This document shows positions 612 through 55,522 of a stretch of DNA of 64,000 bases, one piece after another. A model generated the notes under the pieces. That model was given only the letters and a program-made list of their open reading frames with translations, had not been told where the DNA came from and searched no databases. Position numbers and translations under genes: made by a program. Position 1 is the stretch's first letter, and every line of letters begins with the position of its first letter. Source of the DNA: Parcubacteria group bacterium (GTDB lineage Bacteria; Patescibacteriota; Minisyncoccia; Moranbacterales; UBA9337); assembly GCA_041662245.1 (NCBI GenBank), contig JBAZSW010000001.1:119757-183756 (forward strand), read 5' to 3'.

Positions 612-731
612 TTTATTGTTTGTTATTCTTTTTAGAAAGATTTTTTATAATTATATAATAACAGTTTTTGTTGAATTGATAAAGTCGTGTTATAATTTAT
701 CTAGATATAAATAACTTTTTATTTTTTTGGT

Positions 732-2186
732 ATGGGAAAAAATATGGAAGATTTGCCTGAGTCTTCTCCTCTGGTGGAGAATATTGAAAGAAAAACAAAA
801 ATAAAAGAAAGCATCGGCAAAGATAAAATTAAAGAGGTGGTAGAATCCTTGGACTCGCAAGAAATCGCTTCAAACGAGAAAGAAAAAGAAATAACGCAAA
901 TCTATAAAGCAGATTCTTTTAATGATGAATTGGCAAGAGGACTAGAGGAAGAATTCTTAAATGGAAATGACTTGACTGATGATGAAGTTGCATATAATGG
1001 GAAAAATGAAAATGTTATTGACGTCGAACGGCTTTCTCCTGCAAATAAATATTCAGACGCTACGATTAAAAAAGCAGTCAATGATAAGAAATTTGCCCAA
1101 GACTTAGCAGATCATGAAATAGCAGGGGAAATTGCTGACATAGAGAAAGCCAGTGAAAGAAATAAAAAAGAGTTGAAAGTGGATATTGAAAAATTCAAAA
1201 AAGAATTGCCTACTGTCTTTAATGAGATTAGAAAAAAATTTATTAGTTTTCATAAAAAGTTTTCTGGTTCTGAAGAAGGAAAGCTTTTTACGGATAAATT
1301 GGAAGGGACGATTAATGGTTATGCTCAAAAAATTCATGAGTTTGATGTGATTGATATTTATGATACTAAAACTCTTACAAAGATAAATCAATTGCATCAT
1401 GAAATGGAAATATGGCTTGATAAGAATTGGGATGAACTGTACGAAAGAAAGGTAGGGAGAGGCGCTTTTAAAAAAGAAACTGAAACTGAATCTGTTCTGG
1501 AGGATTTAAATCTAGATGATTTGCATGGAAATGATAGTTTTGCGACTGAAAGGATTAAAAAAGCGGAGCAAAACAAGAAAATTGATAAGATTGAATCAAA
1601 AGATGAGGAAAAAATTAATCAAAAAAACCTTTCTGAGGAAGAGCGGATAGAATTAGTATCATTGATTAGTGAGAAATGGGCAGATGTCGAAAGAGGCTAT
1701 AATGATTTGATGAAAAAGTTTTATGATTTTCGTAAAAGCAATGAAGGCGAAATTAAATATCATAAATTATTATTTAAAAAAACCTTGGATATAAATGAAA
1801 AGAAGGTGACTCTAAAAAAAGTTATTAACGGAAATATTCAAATAAATCAGGAATTATTAAATGATTTAATAGATTTGGACAAGGATATAATTGAATTTAT
1901 AAGTTCAGATTGGGATAGGGAATTAAAAGAATTTAAAGGTGAAATTGAATTTACTCCGGAAGAAAAAGAAATTATAAAAAATGTAGCGGAGGCTTTTGGA
2001 AATTTTATGGATAGTTTAAAAGAAAAAAGTTCATGGGATGAATATGATGCTACGGAAAAAGAAACTGTTTTAAAAATTTTAACCAGTGTAGAGATAAAGA
2101 AAACAATCAAAGAGATGGGAATCGCTGAATATAAAATTAAGCAATTTGCCAATAGTGTTATGGATATTATTTTAACCAAAAAATAA
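732..2186 (+). CDS. Hypothetical Lys/Glu-rich coiled-coil protein (484 aa), first gene of T4SS-like cluster
   Basis: Long ORF with highly charged K/E/D composition and no TM segment. Same strand as, and tightly spaced with, the downstream large protein and the VirB4-like ATPase. Confidence 0.5.
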   Translation: MGKNMEDLPESSPLVENIERKTKIKESIGKDKIKEVVESLDSQEIASNEKEKEITQIYKADSFNDELARGLEEEFLNGNDLTDDEVAYNGKNENVIDVERLSPANKYSDATIKKAVNDKKFAQDLADHEIAGEIADIEKASERNKKELKVDIEKFKKELPTVFNEIRKKFISFHKKFSGSEEGKLFTDKLEGTINGYAQKIHEFDVIDIYDTKTLTKINQLHHEMEIWLDKNWDELYERKVGRGAFKKETETESVLEDLNLDDLHGNDSFATERIKKAEQNKKIDKIESKDEEKINQKNLSEEERIELVSLISEKWADVERGYNDLMKKFYDFRKSNEGEIKYHKLLFKKTLDINEKKVTLKKVINGNIQINQELLNDLIDLDKDIIEFISSDWDRELKEFKGEIEFTPEEKEIIKNVAEAFGNFMDSLKEKSSWDEYDATEKETVLKILTSVEIKKTIKEMGIAEYKIKQFANSVMDIILTKK

Positions 2187-2193
2187 AATTAAA

Positions 2194-5100
2194 ATGGAAA
2201 AAGATAATTTAGATCCAAGAAAAGTAGCGGAAAACTTGGGTGATGAGATTAGAAAAAATTTGAAAAATAAAAACGTTTCAACTGAGGCGGTTTTTGAGGG
2301 TGAGCAGAAAGAAGCTTCAGCGAAAAAAGATCCGATTATGACATCCGAAGATGAATTAAAAACAGGCCTAGATGAAGCACAGACTTCCAATAAAAAACCC
2401 AAGAAAGAAGAACTGACGTCAGAGGAGAAAGAAAAAGTTTATAAGTTGAAGAAAGATTTGGAAGATATTTTTAAAAGAAAAGAATTTGAAAATTATAAAA
2501 AAAAGAATCCGGATAGATTGGCGGAATACATCAGGCAGATAACAAGACAGGCGGAAAATAATATTAAAAAGGAGAAAGAATGGGATGCTTTAGATATCTT
2601 ATTGGATAAAGCTAAAAAAAGTAAGGCAACTACGCTAATCAGAATTTTGGAGGAAATAAAAAATAATAGGGGAACGGAAAAAATAAAAGAAAATTGGACA
2701 TTGGAAGAAATAAACGAAAGATTAAAATCAGCCGGTGCTGAAGATGAAGATATTAAATACTTTTTTACACTAATTAAAAAAGATAGATTAGATTTTCTTA
2801 ATTCAAATGATGAGGATCTGAGATTTAGAATTGGAAAATTAAAAGAAATGAGAGAAAGTGATAAAACAAGGCAAGAAAGTGCTGAAAATCAGGAAGAAAA
2901 AGTCGAAAAAGAGATGTTATCAACTGAAAATAATGACGAGGAAAAAGAAGTGGAAAATAGAAGAGTGTTGAAATATCTAGGAGGAGAAGTAGAAAGGTGT
3001 CGAAAAGAATACGTTAAAAAAGAAGATGAAGTGGGGGTTAAAATTTCTCGACTCAAAAATTTCTTTCGAAATCTTATTTCTATTGATAAAACTTATGAAA
3101 TTGAGAAAGAATTAGAAACTTACAAAGAAGAATATGAGAGAGCTCTGAAAAATCATTTGGAGGCGGTAGTTGATATTTTGGGTATTTCTAGCGAAGAAGA
3201 GCTAAAAAATTTACTTAATTATACTAAATTTGAAGAAAAACTGAATTTAATAAACGCCAAGGAGGATTTAAAATTTGAAAATGATCCTCGTTTGGAAAGT
3301 TTTAAGATACATTTTAAATCATGGGCAGTGGGCGCCTTGGAAGGCTACAAAAATTTGTTAGCCAAACCTCGAGAATTAATTACACAAAAAACTGGTTCAA
3401 AAATAAAAGGATTTGCTGGTGGAATGATCGCAGTGGGAGGAGCGATGGCATTTGCAAGCAATTATATTCCTGGACTAAGAAATGTGACCGTTCCCCTGAG
3501 TGTAGCGATAGCAACCATGGGATTTCAAAAAAGAGCTCAAGAAAAAGTTGAAATTGAAAAAGGGCAGTCTTTGGAAAGAGGGTTGGCAGATTTGCAAACT
3601 AGATTGGCGGGAATGGATGATAATCTAAAAAAAGAAATTCTTAAAAGAGAATTAGGAATGGAAATAAAAGATATTCCCGAAAAAGTTATTCGAGAAACAG
3701 AAGAAAAATATAAAAGATATTTATATTCTTTTGGTAAGGCTGTAGCCGTGAGTACTTTTTTCTATGAAGTAGGACAGTATGTCAGGGGGTATCTTTCTGG
3801 TTCGGAAACGGATCATCTCAATGAATCTATAATGAAAGACAATCTTGTGAAGGCGGGGGTTAAACTTCCTCCAACCCAAGACGAAACTTATCATATTAAT
3901 CGTCATCCAGAGGCCAATACCGCGGGAATAGCTGATGGAAGACCAGCGGGTATTCATGGAATGCAAAATCAAAAAATAATGGATGAGCCAAAAATTCCCG
4001 AAGGAGTAGCGCCTATAAAAGCAGAAACTATTCAAGAAACATTCAAAAAATTTGGAATAAAAGATTTAGATGCGAATCCTAATGAATCTCCAGAAGCTAA
4101 TCCTACCGATGCATCACATCCCGAAATTAAAAGCGACACTAATCCTACAAAAAGTGAAGAATTAGATAGCAAGGAGGGTGGAACGAGCGAGGAAATTAAT
4201 GTTTCAGAAAACAACGAAGATATTTTTAAAAATGAAGCACTAGAAACGCCAGAAATAAAGAGGACAGAATTTTCTGGTATTGAGTTGAATAACTCTAATA
4301 ATGGAGAATTGATAATAAAACAAAAGGATAGTGTTATCGGTACCATTGCCAAATTTTTAGAAAAAAATAGCGACAAATTGACAGAGGGGAAAATGGGTTT
4401 TGATCCAGCTAAATATTCCGGAGCAACCCTAGAAGAAAAAATTCATAGTTGGTCACAGATAAGAGCCAATGCTATCGCTAAAGAATTTGCTCGTGCTAAT
4501 AGTGAATATAATTTAAATAAAGTATCAGATGGTTCAAGCATCGCTTTAAATCTAAATAATTTAGCTGATATAAAAATCGAGCATCTCAATGATCAATATC
4601 ATTTAGGAGGAGAAGCTGTCTCTCAAGAAATTCCGATAAGCGCAACTGATAATGCAGAGAGGTTAATAGAGGTAAAAGAAACTATTAGATTAGAAAATGC
4701 CACTAAGGATGAAATGGAATTAGTTCATAAAATAGGATTAACTCCCAAAGAATATGCGGATTTGAATGACAAATCGGTGATAAATTTTCTTGATTCTAAA
4801 AATTCTGATAATCCCATTGATTCCAGTGCTCAATTAAAAAATATTCTTAAATATTTGATTAAAGAGGGATCAATTAACAATGTAAATAGTAGTGTTTCAG
4901 ACGCGATTAGAAGCTTGGATGAGCATTCCTTGGGAAAAATATTTGATAAGAGCAGTCAAATATTTACCCCCGATTTTTCTTTGCGAGAAGATTTTAATTA
5001 CAGTGAATATGTGGGAGAAGTGGTTAAAAATGAGCTATCAGAAGTGATTCGAGATAAATCTATTTTAGGTTTGGTTTTTAAGGAGATTGGCAGTATTAAA

Positions 5101-17046: not shown

Positions 17047-17074
17047 TTGATTTTTTATATAAATAATATATAAT
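17047..17074 (+). promoter_or_regulatory. Sigma-70-like promoter (TTGATT-16-TATAAT) upstream of the intron-containing tRNA
   Basis: TTGATT at 17047-17052 and TATAAT at 17069-17074 with a 16-nt spacer, about 85 nt upstream of tRNA position 1. Confidence 0.35.
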
Positions 17075-17193
17075 AGTCTTTGTTGGCTTTGGAATTGTAT
17101 TTTTTTAGTTTTTAAAATTGGGCTTAGTTTTTTACTAAGTCGAACATTAAAAATTATATTCCGCGATAGCTCAGTGGTAGAGCAGTTGGCTGT

Positions 17194-17758
17194 GAACACA
17201 ATCTTTTGTATAATTAATTTATATGAAAGATACAAGAAAATACACTGATCGTTCTGAATATTTAAAACAAGCTGTATCTAAAAGAAGAAAGAAAATAAGA
17301 GATATAGCAATTGAATATAAGGGCGATAAATGTTTTATCTGTGGTTATGACAAATGCAAAAATGCATTAGAATTTCATCATACCGACCCAGTGAAAAAAG
17401 AATTTGGATTATCTAAATCAGGATTAACTCGTAGCTGGGAACGTGTAAAAAATGAAATTGAGAAGTGTGTTTTAGTTTGTGCTAATTGCCATAGAGAATT
17501 ACATGACAAAAACGCAGCCCTCAGTAGAAATACTAAGGTGAAAATAAGGTGAATTGCTGGAAGTCTAAAATCTTTTTTCAGTGTAAAGATTACGATAATC
17601 AGCAGCCGAGCCCCGACGTGACGTCGAGGAAGGTTCAGAGACTATCCCTTCGGGGAGTACTTTCTCTTTAATTAGAGATGGGAAGCGCCTTATCTCATAA
17701 TCTTTTGTAAGAAATGAGAATGATATAGTCCACCCTTTTTGGAAACAAGAAGATAAGT
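17194..17758 (+). mobile_element. Group I self-splicing intron with HNH homing endonuclease ORF (ORF in P1 loop, catalytic core 17553-17758)
   Basis: Canonical group I core elements are present. R element GGTTCAGAGACTA is at 17631-17643. S element GATATAGTCC is at 17721-17730, forming P7 with AGACTA. The 5' exon ends in U and the intron ends with an omega-G. The HNH ORF is embedded upstream of the core. Confidence 0.75.
17223..17552 (+). CDS. HNH homing endonuclease (intron-encoded)
   Basis: Zinc-binding pairs CFICGYDKC and CANCHRELH. HNH motif EFHHTDP...N...H. The ORF lies inside the tRNA intron. Confidence 0.75.
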   Translation: MKDTRKYTDRSEYLKQAVSKRRKKIRDIAIEYKGDKCFICGYDKCKNALEFHHTDPVKKEFGLSKSGLTRSWERVKNEIEKCVLVCANCHRELHDKNAALSRNTKVKIR

Positions 17759-17792
17759 GTAACCAATTGGTCGGGGGTTCGAATCCCTCTCG

Positions 17793-18085
17793 CGGAGCAA
17801 ATTAAGAAAGATACCTGCAAAGGTATCTTTTTTAATTTGCTCCGCGAAGAAAGTGAATGGTTTCACTTTTGTGAGGGTTCGAAAGTCGGAGTGTTGTGTG
17901 AGTTTTTCTGTTTAGGCAGAAAAGGCAAACACCACGAGACGGGGTCGCGAAATTTTTACGTCAGGAAAAATATTTGTGACAGAATCCCTCTCGCGGAGCT
18001 GCGAAAAACTCAAAAAAGACTACCTTATCAGGATAATCTTTTTTTGTTTTGTATTTTTCCTAGGACCGTCCTAGAAATAGGTAGA
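17793..18085 (+). repeat. Direct repeat 1 (~290 bp) of island; begins at tRNA 3' end and contains a second copy of the tRNA 3' end (GAATCCCTCTCGCGGAGC at 17984-18001)
   Basis: Near-identical (~93%) to 22911-23203. It contains a terminator hairpin and an internal 18-nt duplicate of the tRNA T-loop/acceptor 3' strand. The ORF-track ORF 17837-18115 inside it is judged spurious. Confidence 0.8.
17807..17836 (+). terminator. Rho-independent terminator after tRNA 3' exon (inside direct repeat 1)
   Basis: Stem AAAGATACC / GGTATCTTT with loop TGCAAA, followed by a T-run. An identical hairpin lies in direct repeat 2 at 22921-22950. Confidence 0.6.
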
Positions 18086-18782
18086 AGTATGTATCTATTT
18101 ATGCTAAAATCATAACATATGAGCAGAAGAGAAAAAATAATTATAGGAGAGTATTATCATATTTTTAATCGTGGAGTGGAGAAGAGAAAAATATTTAATA
18201 ATAAAAATGATTATTTTCGTTTTTGCAATTCGATGATTTTTTTGAATACGGAAAAACCTTCTAAAATGTCTTTTGACAAATTTGATGATAATGAACGTCC
18301 TTCTGACAATGAGATGTTAGTAGATATTGTTGCGTACTGCTTAAATTCAAATCACTTTCATTGCATTTTAAAAGAGAAACGGGAAAATGGAATTGCGACT
18401 TTTATAAAAAAAGTTTGTACAAGTCATGCTATGTATTTTAATAAAAAATATGAAAGATCAGGAGTATTGTTTCAGGGAAGATTTAAATCGGTACATATAG
18501 ATTCAAATGATTTACTGTTGTATTTATCTGCCTATGTTAATTGCAATAGTCAGGTTCACAAAATAGAGGATGCTGAAAAATATCCTTGGTGTAGTTTTCC
18601 TGAGTATTTAGGCGGGCTTGGAATTGGATGTCAAAAGTCTATCATTCTCGATCAATTTAAAAGTTCAATTGATTATAAAACATTTTGTTTAGAAAAAGTT
18701 GATGGAATGATAAGTAGGAAGGATAATGAAAAATTATGTTTTGAATAGTCATAATTTCTAGGACCGTCCTAGCTAGTTAGTG
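18060..18782 (+). mobile_element. RayT/IS200-like HUH-Y1 transposase gene flanked by identical 15-bp perfect palindromes CTAGGACCGTCCTAG (REP/REPtron-like unit)
   Basis: Palindromes at 18060-18074 and 18768-18782 bracket the ORF at 18119-18748. A third copy lies at 23839-23853 and a degenerate copy in direct repeat 2 near 23176. Confidence 0.6.
18119..18748 (+). CDS. REP-associated tyrosine transposase RayT / IS200-like Y1 HUH transposase (COG1943-like)
   Basis: N-terminal YYHIFNRGVEKRKIFNNKNDYFRF matches the COG1943 pattern (YHV.NRGN.RQ.IF...D..F). HUH motif NHFHCIL. FQGRFKS. Catalytic Tyr region LYLSAYVNCN. Confidence 0.65.
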   Translation: MSRREKIIIGEYYHIFNRGVEKRKIFNNKNDYFRFCNSMIFLNTEKPSKMSFDKFDDNERPSDNEMLVDIVAYCLNSNHFHCILKEKRENGIATFIKKVCTSHAMYFNKKYERSGVLFQGRFKSVHIDSNDLLLYLSAYVNCNSQVHKIEDAEKYPWCSFPEYLGGLGIGCQKSIILDQFKSSIDYKTFCLEKVDGMISRKDNEKLCFE

Positions 18783-18784
18783 AA

Positions 18785-19336
18785 ATGGTTAAGCTGGGTG
18801 ATATTTGTGATATATATATTGGCGGGACACCATCAAGGAAAATTGGTAAATATTGGGGCGGAAAAAATCTCTGGGTTAAAATAAAAGATATGAAGAAGAA
18901 TGCTTCTTCTATAATGGATACGGAGGAAAAGATAACAGATGAGGGTATCAATAAGTCCAGCGTTAAGCTTCTCAAAAAAGGAACTTTATTGTTTAGTTTT
19001 AAATTAACAATAGGAAAGGTTGTTATTGCAGGAAGAGATCTCTATACAAACGAAGCTATCGCTGGTATAGTTCCGAAGGACGGTAAGGTTTTAATGAAAT
19101 ATTTATATTACATATTGCCTAGGTTAGATTATTTATCTTATTGTCAACGAGCAACGAAAGGTATGACTTTAAACAAAGAAATCTTAAATAGCCTGAGTAT
19201 ACCATTGCCTTCTGTTGCAGAACAAGAAAAAATAATAAAAAAGCTTGATGAAATAGAATTGAGAAAATATAAATATTTAGAGAATTTAAAAAATGCCACC
19301 GCTGAGCAAGATAGAGAAATTTTAAATATCTTGTAG
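18785..19336 (+). CDS. Type I restriction-modification specificity subunit HsdS-like, single target-recognition domain (orphan)
   Basis: LGDICDIYIGGTPSRK start. TRD core with NEAIAGIVP. C-terminal conserved region SIPLPSVAEQEKIIKKLDEIE (PLPPLAEQ-type). Only 183 aa. No hsdM/hsdR in the window. Confidence 0.65.
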   Translation: MVKLGDICDIYIGGTPSRKIGKYWGGKNLWVKIKDMKKNASSIMDTEEKITDEGINKSSVKLLKKGTLLFSFKLTIGKVVIAGRDLYTNEAIAGIVPKDGKVLMKYLYYILPRLDYLSYCQRATKGMTLNKEILNSLSIPLPSVAEQEKIIKKLDEIELRKYKYLENLKNATAEQDREILNIL

Positions 19337-19373
19337 CAGTATAAATTTTTTAATATTCAATTTATTTGTTATA

Positions 19374-20045
19374 ATGAAAAAAAGAAATAAATCAAAAACA
19401 AATATGAAAAAAAAATCATTAATCACGCATAGTCAACATTTTGTTCTTACAAATGATAAAATAATTCGTACCGCTCTTAAAGAAAAATTAGAGGAGTCTT
19501 ATTTTGGAATAAAAAATACTAAGATTATTGAAGAATTAGGCATTACTCATGGGGAGGCTCGTATTGACATAGCTGTTGTTAACGGTGTTATACATGGCTA
19601 TGAACTAAAGAGTGACAGGGACACATTAAAACGGTTGCCTGGTCAGATTGAAATATATAACACAGTTCTTGATAAGGTAACACTAGTGGTGGGAATGAAT
19701 CATTTGCATGAAGCGATGAAAATCGTTCCAGATTGGTGGGGTATAACAATTGCAAAAATAGTAAATTCAGATAGCGTAGTTTCTTTTTTTAATATTCGAG
19801 AACCAGAAGAAAATAAAAATCAAAACAGCGCTGCTGTTGCTGCACTGTTATGGAGAGAAGAAGCTCTCAAAATATTGGAGAATATAGGACAAGCCAAGGG
19901 GATGCAATCAAAAAGTAGAAAGGCTATATATGAAAAATTGGCTGATGTTTTAGAAAAAAAATCTTTAAATAAAATCGTTCGGGAACAGCTACGTACTAGG
20001 GTAAATTGGCGATCTGATTTGCAGTGCATACCAAGTGGTGGTTAA
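19374..20045 (+). CDS. PD-(D/E)xK-fold nuclease-like protein (sce7726-family-like)
   Basis: Motif GEARIDIAVVNGVIHGYELKSDRD (D ... E-x-K). Convergent with, and overlapping, a 372-aa partner gene. The family assignment comes from memory of family descriptions, not a search. The true start may be the second Met (MKKKSL, ~19404). Confidence 0.4.
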   Translation: MKKRNKSKTNMKKKSLITHSQHFVLTNDKIIRTALKEKLEESYFGIKNTKIIEELGITHGEARIDIAVVNGVIHGYELKSDRDTLKRLPGQIEIYNTVLDKVTLVVGMNHLHEAMKIVPDWWGITIAKIVNSDSVVSFFNIREPEENKNQNSAAVAALLWREEALKILENIGQAKGMQSKSRKAIYEKLADVLEKKSLNKIVREQLRTRVNWRSDLQCIPSGG

Positions 20046-21114
20046 TACCTGCTGTTAGCCATGTTTCAGTGCTTCCAGTGCCTTTAATTTCTGGGTTTAG
20101 TTGGTATTTTTCAAAATGTTTCCCCTTATCAAATATATACTTGTCGCCAATGCTAAAATTTTCTCCCATAAAAAGATCTACATCCTCTGATAGTAGTTTT
20201 GCATTGGCTAAATAGAGTTCATACTTTTGTTTTTTACCTTTCATGATTAGCCAATTACTTTCCAGTGTATATTTTATACTAGTGGTGGGAGGAAAGAATT
20301 GAAAAGATTCTTTGTATATTGGATGCTGAATTGTGTAATCTGCAAATATCGGATTTCTTTGCAGGGTTTTTGCGCTAACATAACCAAGCCAACCTATCCA
20401 ATCATGACGAGGAAGATAATTTTCTTCATCAAGTTTGCACTTGGATAAATCTAGGGGAAAAGCGCCACCTGCAAAAATAAATGATCTCCATTTTGATAGG
20501 TTGTGAATTTGCTGACTCTTAGTTATATATGTTTGATATTTGCCATCATTTTCTTCGACACTTTTAATATCTACTAATAGGTCAATATTCTTTTCTTCTA
20601 GATTGTAAGAAGTTAAAAAATCATTAATTTTTTTATTCAGCACATCTATGTCAGAGAAATCAGAACAAACTATTCGCAAGCACAAACCGTTGTTGTGTTT
20701 TTTTGCTAATAATCCGACGATATTTTTAATCTGAAGATCATCGTTAATGTTTATCACTGGAATCAAAACCATCCCGTTGGCACCTCCTTTTGTTAGTATT
20801 TTTTCAAAGCATGTTATTTTCAATGACGTGGTGTATAGGAGACTAAAATCAATAAATATTGGATCTTTTCCCCAAAACTTCAAAATTTCTTCTGAAATTT
20901 CAGGTATTTTTTCACTAAACGTTGCTATGACTTTATTAAATTTTTCCTCTTGAGTTTGTTCCGATGCTTCTTTTGTGCTTGATTTTGGCTTTGGCATTAC
21001 GAACTGAATTAGTGGAGTAATATATCTTTTACTTTCATCATTTAAAGCCTCTAGGGCTTTTTGCTCAGCACGTTTCCATTTTAATATTGGCACATAATGT
21101 TTTGCTTCAAACAT
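19996..21114 (-). CDS. Hypothetical 372-aa protein, possible Beta-protein (PF14350)/sce7725-family-like partner of the PD-(D/E)xK protein
   Basis: N-terminus MFEAKHYVPILKWKRAEQKALEAL resembles the YVPILK.K.GE..AL start I recall for Beta_protein/sce7725 families. Its 3' end overlaps the convergent gene at 19374-20045 by about 50 nt. This is an inference only. Confidence 0.3.
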   Translation of the reverse strand: MFEAKHYVPILKWKRAEQKALEALNDESKRYITPLIQFVMPKPKSSTKEASEQTQEEKFNKVIATFSEKIPEISEEILKFWGKDPIFIDFSLLYTTSLKITCFEKILTKGGANGMVLIPVININDDLQIKNIVGLLAKKHNNGLCLRIVCSDFSDIDVLNKKINDFLTSYNLEEKNIDLLVDIKSVEENDGKYQTYITKSQQIHNLSKWRSFIFAGGAFPLDLSKCKLDEENYLPRHDWIGWLGYVSAKTLQRNPIFADYTIQHPIYKESFQFFPPTTSIKYTLESNWLIMKGKKQKYELYLANAKLLSEDVDLFMGENFSIGDKYIFDKGKHFEKYQLNPEIKGTGSTETWLTAGINHHLVCTANQIANLP

Positions 21115-21115
21115 A

Positions 21116-22321
21116 CTAGTTAGTCCATTTTTCCTCAGGAAAATATTCTTTAACTTTTGCCTGATTTATAATGTTATTTAAATAAATATAATTACCTCCA
21201 GCGCGTCGCATTTTACCAGCAACGATAGCTATGTGTATTCCCAATTCCCTTGCTAGACTTTTTGCTGCCATAGAGTTAGGCATCAAACTAGCTGGGCTTA
21301 CCTCCCATCTACCCTCAGGAACGAGAGCTTCCGATGCTAATTTATCAGCTTCATCTTCCGTGATATTAATATCAGTATTATCTAAATCGTCATAGAAAAA
21401 ATCAGATCCTTGGTTGTAGTGAAGCGCAATATGTGCAAGTTCATGCATTAGGGTAAACCAAAAGTTATCAAGACGATTATGTCGGATTGTTAGTCCGATA
21501 ATAGGTTTATTTTTGTTTGTTAGAATTGTTGCACCATCCAGGTATGTTTGAGTGAAGTGAGGTTCTATTATTAAAATAATCCCATATTTTTTTAAAAAAT
21601 TACGAGCAGCAACAGGTCCATTTTCTCTTATGCTTAATTTTGCCAATTCTTGCATAAAGGTTAAATTTATTAACTCCGACTTAAATGGGGAAACATTTTT
21701 TATTTTGCTTGCTTTTCTTACTACAATAGTAGACCAAACAACGAGAGCATGTTTATCCATAGGTCGTGTGGATCTGTAGTTGGTTTTACGAAGCATTCCG
21801 GATAGGCATGCTGGGGAGCCCACAGGAGCAAAAAAATTTTCCATCACGGTTTTTATATCAGATATTGTAGATAATTTTTCTAAATATCCTCGCCTTATCA
21901 TTTCCTTTAATGGGAAACGGTTCCAGACAATATTTTCTGTATTTCTGAATTCGTCAGCTTCTTTTAATAGGACTTTTGCAGGAATACCTAATCCGGCTTC
22001 AAGAGCTCTTATCATTGAAAGAGTTAATTGTCTTTTGCGAGAGAGAATTTCTGAGACCTTGCTTCTGCTTCCGATATAAGGTACTAAATCTGATGGTTTT
22101 AAATTCTGTTGTTCCATTCTAAATAAGATCGCATCAATTGGATCTGGCAAAGACTCCGGAATTATTTTTGATTCATAATCCTTTATTAGTGTTATTAGGA
22201 GACTTAGTTTTTCACCATTCTCTGAGTTAGGATCGGGATTTTTGTCCATTAAATTCTCGACTAACTTTATAGCCTCTTGATAATCTTCTTCAGTTTTTAT
22301 AACCTTGATTTTAGTTGTCAT
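21116..22321 (-). CDS. HTH (XRE-like) + ImmA/IrrE-family zinc metallopeptidase fusion; HigA-type antitoxin partner of HigB
   Basis: HEXXH motif in MHELAHIALH with downstream FYDD (COG2856-like). N-terminal helix-turn-helix region. It lies 15 nt downstream of the HigB-like gene on the same strand. Confidence 0.65.
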   Translation of the reverse strand: MTTKIKVIKTEEDYQEAIKLVENLMDKNPDPNSENGEKLSLLITLIKDYESKIIPESLPDPIDAILFRMEQQNLKPSDLVPYIGSRSKVSEILSRKRQLTLSMIRALEAGLGIPAKVLLKEADEFRNTENIVWNRFPLKEMIRRGYLEKLSTISDIKTVMENFFAPVGSPACLSGMLRKTNYRSTRPMDKHALVVWSTIVVRKASKIKNVSPFKSELINLTFMQELAKLSIRENGPVAARNFLKKYGIILIIEPHFTQTYLDGATILTNKNKPIIGLTIRHNRLDNFWFTLMHELAHIALHYNQGSDFFYDDLDNTDINITEDEADKLASEALVPEGRWEVSPASLMPNSMAAKSLARELGIHIAIVAGKMRRAGGNYIYLNNIINQAKVKEYFPEEKWTN

Positions 22322-22336
22322 AGTATTTTCTGGTTA

Positions 22337-22615
22337 TTACCAGCTCATATATTCATTATGTGTGCCGGCATTCATTATTAGGACCGCTTCGTATGGGTAG
22401 TTGATCTTAGTTTTTAGTCTGTATTTAACTCCTTTTAAATTAAATATCACAGTATTGTCTGCTAAAAAACTCGCACTAGCATAGCGCTGCTTGATATCTT
22501 GTGGCGTGCACCACCTTGCCATTGCTACTTCGGCTTCCCAAGCGTCTACCTGTGAACGGACATCAGCGTGCTTTTGCTTGAAAGTATGTAATTTTTCTTT
22601 ACCAAGGATATTCAT
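22337..22615 (-). CDS. higB: HigB-family type II toxin (RelE/ParE superfamily)
   Basis: MNILGKEKLHTFKQKHADVRSQVDAWEAEVAMARWCTPQDIKQRYASASFLADNTVIFNLKGVKYRLKTKINY matches the HigB pattern (KHPDAR..L.AWY.EV..A.W..P.D.K..Y.SAS...DN.VVFNI.GNKYRL). The ORF-track start 22642 is 9 codons upstream. The internal Met at 22615 fits HigB homolog length. Confidence 0.75.
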   Translation of the reverse strand: MNILGKEKLHTFKQKHADVRSQVDAWEAEVAMARWCTPQDIKQRYASASFLADNTVIFNLKGVKYRLKTKINYPYEAVLIMNAGTHNEYMSW

Positions 22616-22634
22616 TATTATTGACTGTATAATT

Positions 22635-22651
22635 GTTCCCATTATGGGAAC
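22635..22651. promoter_or_regulatory. Perfect inverted repeat GTTCCCAT-T-ATGGGAAC immediately upstream of higB; candidate HigA operator
   Basis: 8-bp arms of perfect dyad symmetry about 20 bp upstream of the proposed higB start. Confidence 0.4.
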
Positions 22652-22910
22652 ATAATATCATGTGACGAATGAGTTGTCAAGATATGAAAAAATAGGTCTT
22701 TATTGAGCTTTTTTGTTAGCTTTCAAATTTTGTGCATAGTCGCTTCAACTTTCCCGTATTAGGCAAATCCGTTACGTTTTCTTGATTGTTTGATAAGTGG
22801 GCAAATAAGAGTTAATTGGGCTACTCGAGATTAATTAACCTAATCTGTCACTGTGGCAGTTTGTTACTTCTTGTTTCTTGAAACAGGTTCGAACTTCGTC
22901 CAAGATTCGG

Positions 22911-23203
22911 AGCAAATTAAGAAAGATACCTGCAAAGGTATCTTTTTTAATTTTCTCCGCGAAGAAAGTGAATGGTTTCACTTTTGTGAGGGTTCGAAAG
23001 TTGGAGTGTTGTGTGAGTTTTTCTGTTTAAACAGAAAAGGCGAACACCACGAGACGGGGTCGCGAAATTTTTACGTCAGGAAAAATATTTGTGACCAAAT
23101 CTCTCTCGCGGAGCTGCGAAAAACTCAAAAAAGACTACCTTATCAGGATAGTCTTTTTTCGTCTCATTTATTTAAGGACCGTCTTAGTCGATTAGTTTTT
23201 TAA
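22911..23203 (+). repeat. Direct repeat 2 of island (copy of 17793-18085, ~93% identical)
   Basis: Shares the start GGAGCAAATTAAGAAAGATACCTGCAAAGGTATCTTTTTTAATT and the internal CTCGCGGAGCTGCGAAAAACTCAAAAAAGACTACCTTATCAGGATA block. The ORF 22853-23203 predicted inside it is judged spurious. Confidence 0.8.
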
Positions 23204-55447: not shown

Positions 55448-55451
55448 TAAG

Positions 55452-55522
55452 TTGGAGATGAGGGATTCGAACCCCCGATGACGGGATCAGAACCCGTTGC
55501 CTTACCGCTTGGCTAATCTCCA
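55452..55522 (-). tRNA. tRNA-Gln (anticodon CUG)
   Basis: Minus-strand cloverleaf UGGAGAU UA GCC AAGCGGUAA GGC A ACGGG UUCUGAU CCCGU CAUC GGGGG UUCGAAU CCCUC AUCUCCA A. It has a U1-A72 pair and a 3-bp D stem, as in E. coli tRNA-Gln. CCA is not encoded. Confidence 0.8.

Follow-up and report, generated by a model that had tools for sequence, protein, structure and literature searches.

The 64,000-nt stretch of DNA analysed here, referred to as the window (Parcubacteria group bacterium, GenBank assembly GCA_041662245.1, contig JBAZSW010000001.1, positions 119,757 to 183,756 of the forward strand), carries, with a probability of roughly 0.92, a tRNA-Asn(GUU) gene into which, between U35 and U36, an IA-type group I intron of 566 nt with an HNH gene is inserted. 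The host genome belongs to the Patescibacteria and is Moraniibacteriota-like. The flanking genes of the split tRNA are dnaG and rpoD, the GC content is 33%, and the nearest locus, in the Candidatus Moraniibacteriota metagenome-assembled genome (MAG) JAVEXR010000059.1, has an identical gene order. A preliminary description of the locus had read it as a tRNA split by a group I intron with an HNH open reading frame (ORF), and this reading stands, as evidenced through a match to the covariance model RF00028, a split tRNA reported by ARAGORN and the Pfam domain PF01844. The feature was correctly recognised, but it is of a kind that is already known and published, with experimental support for relatives. 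The parts of the gene are as follows.

17160..17797, + strand: split tRNA-Asn(GUU) gene (5' exon 17160-17193, intron 17194-17759, 3' exon 17760-17797).
17160..17193, + strand: tRNA-Asn 5' exon, with the acceptor 5' strand, D arm, anticodon stem 5' strand and loop positions C32-U35, ending in U35 (sequence, and ARAGORN on the spliced form).
17188..17193, + strand: P1 5' strand GGCUGU, complementary to GCAGCC at 17514-17519, with a U17193.G17514 wobble at the splice site.
17194..17759, + strand: group I intron, IA-type, 566 nt, AT-rich (RF00028, covariation across 66 loci, ARAGORN length).
17223..17552, + strand: HNH homing-endonuclease ORF, 109 aa, with its stop codon (17550-17552) in J3/4 (ORF list, Pfam PF01844).
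17514..17519, + strand: internal guide sequence GCAGCC (P1 3' strand), directly 5' of P2 and within the last codons of the ORF (Rfam alignment).
17759, + strand: terminal omega-G of the intron, a G found directly before UAA in 66/66 aligned loci (columns G254 T255 A256 A257).
17760..17797, + strand: tRNA-Asn 3' exon, with U36, A37, A38, the anticodon stem 3' strand, variable loop, T arm and acceptor 3' strand (ARAGORN on the spliced form).

With default settings neither tool detected this gene: ARAGORN on the whole 64-kb window returned nothing at 17160-17797, and the whole-window Rfam run at gathering thresholds returned nothing at the intron locus. The whole-window Rfam run used the fast filters of Rfam, whereas the local run was an E-value search, and in the latter RF00028 matched at 17461-17752 with 77.7 bits (gathering threshold 50; E 9.7e-20) over its full length, model positions 1-253 of 253. 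The preliminary description had named this covariance model as a check on its reading, and the score supports it. In intron mode, ARAGORN reports a split tRNA with an intron length of 566 nt, labelling the tRNA Thr(tgt). The only other tRNA that default tools find in the window is tRNA-Gln(CUG), at 55451-55522 on the minus strand. A genome carrying such a split gene would seem to be without tRNA-Asn, and hence less complete, which is where the value for annotation lies; this point has appeared in print before, and a recent paper on tRNA introns in Patescibacteria describes such genes as missed and miscalled (Nakagawa, Amikura, Omae and Suzuki, mSystems 2026, PMC13011429; preprint July 2025, bioRxiv 10.1101/2025.07.03.662931).

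The secondary structure of the intron was examined by comparison with related loci. In total 82 loci were considered, namely the best 80 of at least 555 stretches of GTDB species representatives coding for relatives of the HNH protein, and two more obtained via exact protein look-up. The HNH gene lies in a split tRNA-Asn at position 35/36 in 66 of these 82 loci (64 of the best 80). The ribozyme halves of the 66 homologous loci were aligned using MAFFT, and P2-P9 were mapped on the window sequence as listed below, with the percentage of alignment cells holding a standard pair and the number of pairs with changes on both sides where available.

17520..17537, + strand: P2 hairpin with a GAAA loop (93.3% of cells paired; both-side changes in 7/7 pairs).
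17544..17549, + strand: P3 5' strand AUAAGG, with its partner at 17688-17693 (85% paired; both-side changes in 5/6 pairs).
17555..17604, + strand: P4 (17555-17560 with 17599-17604) around P5/P5a (17563-17596), from the Rfam alignment (helices 3 and 4, 100% and 93.7% paired, with compensatory changes).
17605..17634, + strand: P6/P6a (P6 98% paired; P6a of varying length).
17632..17644, + strand: R element GGUUCAGAGACUA, in which the P7 5' strand is G17638 plus 17640-17644, with A17639 bulged.
17645..17678, + strand: P7.1 (17645-17656, UUCG loop) and P7.2 (17663-17678) (helices 10 and 11, 81.8% and 81.6% paired).
17688..17693, + strand: P3 3' strand CCUUAU (alignment mapping).
17694..17718, + strand: P8 hairpin (both-side changes in 9/9 pairs).
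17722..17731, + strand: S element GAUAUAGUCC, in which the P7 3' strand is 17726-17731.
17735..17752, + strand: P9 hairpin with a GAAA loop (88.4% paired; both-side changes in 6/7 pairs).

Standard pairs occupy 87.2% of cells, compared with 36-48% in controls where the 3' partners were slid by 1-3 columns. Both-side changes occur in 63 of 75 pairs, and the observed measures were reached by none of 500 shuffles (0/500). The core helices P3-P9, including the P3/P7 pseudoknot, are therefore backed by covariation, with compensatory changes being plentiful in P2, P3, P4, P5, P6, P8 and P9. The pairs of P7 are almost invariant (99.7% paired), and every pair of P7.1 and P7.2 shows both-side changes. 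Having P7.1 and P7.2 in the interval from P7 to the P3 3' strand is a hallmark of subgroup IA, and it is this that marks the intron as IA. The positions given earlier for the R and S elements need a small correction, as GGTTCAGAGACTA sits at 17632-17644 and GATATAGTCC at 17722-17731, each one base rightward of where it had been placed.

P7.1 and P7.2 are missing from the intron alignment in some of the homologous loci (L015, L026, L029, L032, L033, L044, L045, L047-L049, L053, L054, L056, L057, L062, L067, L069 and L073). These loci share the HNH family and the tRNA-Asn 35/36 site, and most of their MAGs carry the label Omnitrophota, Melainabacteria or Planctomycetia, though some of the labels may be unreliable. 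They may form a separate structural subgroup that has this endonuclease as well and lies outside the Patescibacteria.

A decayed relic, in which the intron no longer splices, the tRNA is a pseudogene and an intact tRNA-Asn is found elsewhere in the genome, is improbable here, given that the covariance-model match is full length and that the core helices of the window pair at every position bar one C.A mismatch in P2. The visible genome is only 64 kb, with tRNA-Gln the only other tRNA found there, and the tRNA 3'-end fragment and repeats directly downstream of the gene point to a rearranged locus, both of which would suit such a relic; yet the window has its omega-G, its U.G wobble and its guide sequence, and the 109-aa ORF is unbroken with all family-invariant residues kept. 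The intron is, moreover, better conserved than rpoD when compared with JAVEXR010000059.1 (92% and 83% nucleotide identity, respectively).

Joining 17193 to 17760, with 566 nt taken out, yields a 73-nt tRNA that ARAGORN identifies as tRNA-Asn(gtt), with a canonical cloverleaf, a 7-nt anticodon loop and the anticodon GUU. The preliminary description had started the 3' exon at 17759 and removed 565 nt, which is one base off: 17759 is the terminal G of the intron, and joining 17193 to 17759 results in an 8-nt loop with a 4-base "anticodon", gtgt. The T stem is paired in 100% of cells across the homologous loci. In the window the discriminator G73 is 17797, and no CCA is encoded in the tRNA-Asn gene.

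The same description had left open whether the host was tRNA-Asn or tRNA-Thr, and this now resolves to Asn(GUU). In all 66 homologues the 5' exon closes with CUGU and an intron-final G is followed by UAA at the other splice site, and only the Asn register ends the intron with G in every locus. The labels that ARAGORN gives to the homologues, being Asn(gtt), Thr(tgt), Thr(cgt) or Thr(agt), follow the two bases preceding UAA. The body of the window tRNA, TCCGCGA...TCGCGGA-G, has U1-A72 and G73, and nearly all of the homologous tRNAs have TCC...GGAG ends. Judging from E. coli tRNA-Asn, U1-A72 with discriminator G73 presumably fits a bacterial tRNA-Asn and not a tRNA-Thr. The host is thus taken to be Asn(GUU), with the insertion site at 35/36, because the G before UAA is invariant in 66/66 loci and because of the U1-A72/G73 body.

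A tRNA-Thr(UGU) host, with the intron at 33/34, the 5' exon ending at U17191 and the 3' exon starting at U17758, is accordingly very improbable, even though ARAGORN in intron mode calls it for the window and for many homologues, and even though, in the window, the U before the intron and G17757 as the last intron base also fit. In this register the last intron base would vary among homologues, being other than G in many of them (in L018 it is A, in L028 C and in L032 U), and U17191 would face A17516, leaving no wobble at the splice site; the U1-A72 and G73 body is also typical of tRNA-Asn. For relatives, the published work reports sequenced spliced products and explains the same ARAGORN miscall (Nakagawa et al., 2026).

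The P1 helix is formed between the 5' exon's last bases and the guide sequence just upstream of P2. The four-pair core CUGU/GCAG is present in 66/66 homologues, and all six pairs are complete in 42/66. GCAGC is invariant in 66/66 loci and is read in three frames (22, 28 and 16 loci), and this invariance across all three reading frames argues for a constraint on RNA rather than on protein. An extension of P1, pairing intron base +1 with the base 5' of the guide, holds in 51/66 loci; it is not consistently compensatory and is not claimed as covariation.

The preliminary description was right that the 5' exon ends in a U paired through U.G to the guide, but it had placed the guide at 17602-17607 rather than at 17514-17519. 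The GCAGCC at 17602-17607 is the Q element. A P1 formed with it, with a loop holding the ORF and everything up to P5, can be dismissed almost entirely, as the hexamer, though identical to the true guide and able to pair with GGCUGU on paper, is aligned by Rfam across the last bases of the P4 3' strand and the first of P6, its columns covary with their partner strands in both helices (P4 5' and P6 3'), many homologues read UGAGCU or CGAGCC there and would be unable to pair with the exon, and the GCAGC core invariant in 66/66 loci lies instead at the hexamer just 5' of P2. The corrected map of P1 and the guide sequence is a modest gain.

The splicing steps are inferred from the anatomy of the intron, and the same steps have been demonstrated in vitro for relatives. 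Transcription of the precursor would begin upstream of 17160. GGCUGU (17188-17193) would then pair with GCAGCC (17514-17519) over a 319-nt P1 loop, with U17193.G17514 marking the 5' splice site, while the P3-P9 core (17544-17752) would fold and bind guanosine in P7. An exogenous G would attack after U17193, G17759 would subsequently take the G site, and ligation of the exons would produce the anticodon loop CUGUUAA. The predicted ligated junction is GGCUGU followed by UAACCAAU.

The HNH ORF of the window starts in the P1 loop and crosses first the guide sequence, then P2 and finally the P3 5' strand. The earlier placement of a 109-aa HNH ORF in the P1 loop is therefore accurate for the ORF itself and for its start, but the ORF is not confined to the loop and overlaps the ribozyme core. 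This is a general feature of the homologues, with the HNH frame running through the guide in 66/66 loci and its stop lying 8 to 207 nt past the first base of the guide. Pfam HNH PF01844 matches the 109-aa ORF marginally, at 22.9 bits (cut-off 21.4). Residues C37, C40, H52, H53, C86, N88, C89, H90 and H94 are invariant in 34 aligned family members, giving the family motif CxxC...HH...N...CxxCH...H. In a large protein collection, 564 homologues were found at E <=0.001, and the best 120 listed have E-values of 1e-36 or lower; an exact look-up of the window protein sequence returned no identical record. The protein likely cuts intron-less tRNA-Asn alleles, leading to the intron being copied in (homing).

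Several elements in the region may be relevant to expression of the endonuclease and of the tRNA precursor.

17047..17074, + strand: candidate sigma-70-type promoter of the tRNA precursor, TTGATT-16-TATAAT (10/12 consensus matches).
17186..17191, + strand: putative -35-like TTGGCT, made up of anticodon stem and loop bases, 17 nt upstream of TATAAT.
17209..17214, + strand: putative -10-like TATAAT, 8 nt upstream of the HNH ATG (promoter scan).

A -10-like hexamer is found 6-11 nt before the HNH ATG in 29/67 loci, compared with 6.3% of other ATGs in the same introns, and a perfect TATAAT at this spacing in 15/67 loci, compared with 0.45% of control ATGs. These observations suggest that the HNH mRNA is probably transcribed from its own -10 element inside the intron, and that it would be leaderless or nearly so. 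Phage T4, whose intron ORFs are expressed independently, offers a parallel in principle to such expression from an own promoter. Sigma-70-type sites in the region are not above shuffled expectation, and the promoter at 17047..17074 is inferred.

Two side observations concern these hexamers. The one upstream of the HNH start often takes the form TGnTATAAT, and the Moraniibacteriota-like clade has TTGGCT or TTGACT in the anticodon stem and loop at -35 spacing.

A more speculative proposal, which is doubtful as a whole, combines two parts. In the first, the overlap of the HNH frame with the guide, P2 and the P3 5' strand, together with the promoter at the start codon, would make endonuclease expression and tRNA-Asn maturation mutually exclusive per transcript; separately, the 160-nt tRNA-like segment of the downstream repeat described below would be a new tRNA-mimicking integration module or a small RNA and not just a scar. 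If the proposal were true, ribosomes on the precursor would unfold P1-P3, the endonuclease gene would be served by a leaderless mRNA lacking the 5' exon, and the intron would act as an RNA-level switch on what is possibly the sole cellular tRNA-Asn.

Several points weigh against the reading of this locus as a tRNA-Asn gene split by an IA intron with an HNH homing endonuclease. The IA assignment is drawn from P7.1 and P7.2 and not from subgroup-specific covariance models, and no convincing P10 was found in the intron. Beyond its four invariant pairs, P1 does not covary with changes in the anticodon stem, and hosts with GACUGU retain GCAGCC or GCAGCU, which leaves an A.C mismatch; covariation thus lends P1 weak support. 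The PF01844 score is barely above its cut-off, and a search of NCBIfam gave no model matching the HNH protein. Both promoter assignments are consensus matches alone. For this particular sequence, splicing, expression and cleavage are predictions.

Downstream of the tRNA gene, the window contains a hairpin, a pair of direct repeats and, between the repeat copies, an island of defence and toxin-type genes.

17807..17830, + strand: terminator-like hairpin and T run, at the centre of a palindrome with 27-nt arms (17790-17847) that includes the tRNA 3' end.
18047-22907: 4.9-kb island of defence and toxin-type genes, between the repeat copies.
18119-18748: Y1 (IS200-like) transposase-like gene.
18785-19336: type I restriction S-subunit fragment.
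19374-20045: sce7726-family gene.
19996-21114, minus strand: Beta_protein PF14350 gene.
21116-22321, minus strand: M78/IrrE peptidase.
22337-22642, minus strand: HigB toxin.

The 250-bp direct repeat, which is 97% identical between its copies at ~17794-18046 and ~22908-23160, flanks the island. Each copy comprises a terminator hairpin, a 160-nt structured segment and a second hairpin. The 18-nt tRNA 3' end has an exact copy at 17982-17999 and a copy with two mismatches at 23097-23114, and a degenerate stretch resembling the tRNA 3' end is present at ~22880-22913. In the first repeat, the 160-nt segment (17839-17999) has a folding energy of -64 kcal/mol (z -4.8), ends in the exact 18-nt copy of the tRNA-Asn 3' end and contains a T-arm-like helix, GAGGGTTCGAA ... 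GAATCCCTC, that is split by ~98 nt. The possibility of a transfer-messenger RNA (tmRNA) was considered for this tRNA-like segment and rejected, as ARAGORN detects no tmRNA and the two T-arm strands lie on either side of the insert instead of at the 3' end. Rfam gave no match for the 250-bp repeat, a metagenome scan with a 20-mer of the repeat gave only three chance matches in GC-rich coding DNA, and two scans of viral contigs for it found nothing. No integrase or recombinase is present among the genes of the island at 18047-22907.

Copies of the tRNA 3' end are also seen at other loci. In L036, L037, L040, L068, L074 and L075, six further tRNA-Asn loci with an HNH intron, a copy of the locus's own tRNA 3' end (17 nt, <=2 mismatches) lies 95-185 nt downstream; in these six loci the second tRNA-Asn 3' end is preceded by a terminator and an insert with structure. 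The displaced copy encodes CCA in two of them, L036 and L075, where the functional tRNA-Asn gene does not. The seven loci that have a duplicated tRNA 3' end aligned too poorly in MAFFT for a model to be built. The closest metagenomic relative, L002, whose HNH protein is 90% identical, has a large serine recombinase (Resolvase and Recombinase domains; 614-2263, minus strand) that abuts the tRNA-Asn, the called frame crossing the tRNA 3' exon. Integrative elements with the tRNA-Asn 3' end as their target probably left these repeats behind as att-type traces, and in these lineages this 3' end looks to be a site of repeated integration.

Self-splicing group I introns are known from the anticodon loop of cyanobacterial and plastid tRNA-Leu(UAA) and tRNA-fMet and of proteobacterial tRNA-Ile and tRNA-Arg(CCU), and these introns, like that of the window, use the anticodon stem and loop of the exon as the P1 5' strand. 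According to the published comparison they differ in being mostly IC, with sites at 33/34, 34/35 or 36/37, and usually lack an ORF; those with one have LAGLIDADG or PD-(D/E)XK rather than HNH (Nakagawa et al., 2026).

For the HNH protein, the profile search of the PDB gave weak matches only, to 6ME0 and 6GHC (E 0.0014 and 0.0045), and no solved structure of a close relative. These represent the HNH (En) domain from maturases of group II introns, as well as McrA, which share the HNH motif region with the window protein but are distant and in other domain contexts. Free-standing HNH genes of phages belong to the same protein family, at 50-63% identity to the window protein, with CxxC...HH...CANCH common to both. 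IMG/VR contigs hold at least 536 relatives of the protein, and almost all of these phage relatives lie outside split tRNAs, with a tRNA and R/S context seen only in L087 among the 80 examined. This distribution fits the usual picture of an intron that has been colonised by a phage-type HNH gene.

The closest known system is that of the tRNA introns of Patescibacteria. In that study, 95 complete genomes are reported to contain 15 tRNA-Asn(GUU) and three tRNA-Asp(GUC) genes with group I introns at 35/36, nearly all of the Patescibacteria tRNA introns being of subgroup IA, and four of the tRNA-Asn introns, each >500 nt, encoding HNH (PF01844) endonucleases (Nakagawa et al., 2026). The same account describes how introns at this site are missed by standard tools and miscalled by ARAGORN and tFind as Thr(UGU) 33/34, and credits the first record of the 35/36 site to the earlier tFind work, as "Asn.4Ug". 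One tRNA-Asn and one tRNA-Asp intron self-spliced in vitro, the ligated tRNA was sequenced, and an omega-G-to-C mutant was blocked in splicing (Nakagawa et al., 2026). The preliminary description had considered an Asn host with an HNH endonuclease to be unusual, which was reasonable from the older literature but is no longer true in view of these reported introns.

Among complete genomes, the same study saw HNH-bearing copies in Patescibacteria only (Nakagawa et al., 2026). The loci compared here include further HNH-bearing tRNA-Asn copies, from MAGs whose labels are Omnitrophota, Melainabacteria, Elusimicrobia and Planctomycetia (not all of these labels may be reliable), and the number of loci is an indication that such copies are far commoner than the four known from complete genomes.

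The intron of the window shares with those introns the host tRNA, the U35/U36 site, a patescibacterial host, the IA core with P7.1 and P7.2, an HNH gene in an intron of >500 nt, and both the miss by default tools and the ARAGORN miscall as Thr(UGU) 33/34; nothing fundamental differs, the host of the window being Moraniibacteriota-like (Nakagawa et al., 2026). Relative to the accessible part of the published account, what is added here is a guide that falls within the ORF and is traversed by it in every case, the putative -10 element before the HNH start codon, and the HNH-bearing copies in MAGs with labels outside Patescibacteria.

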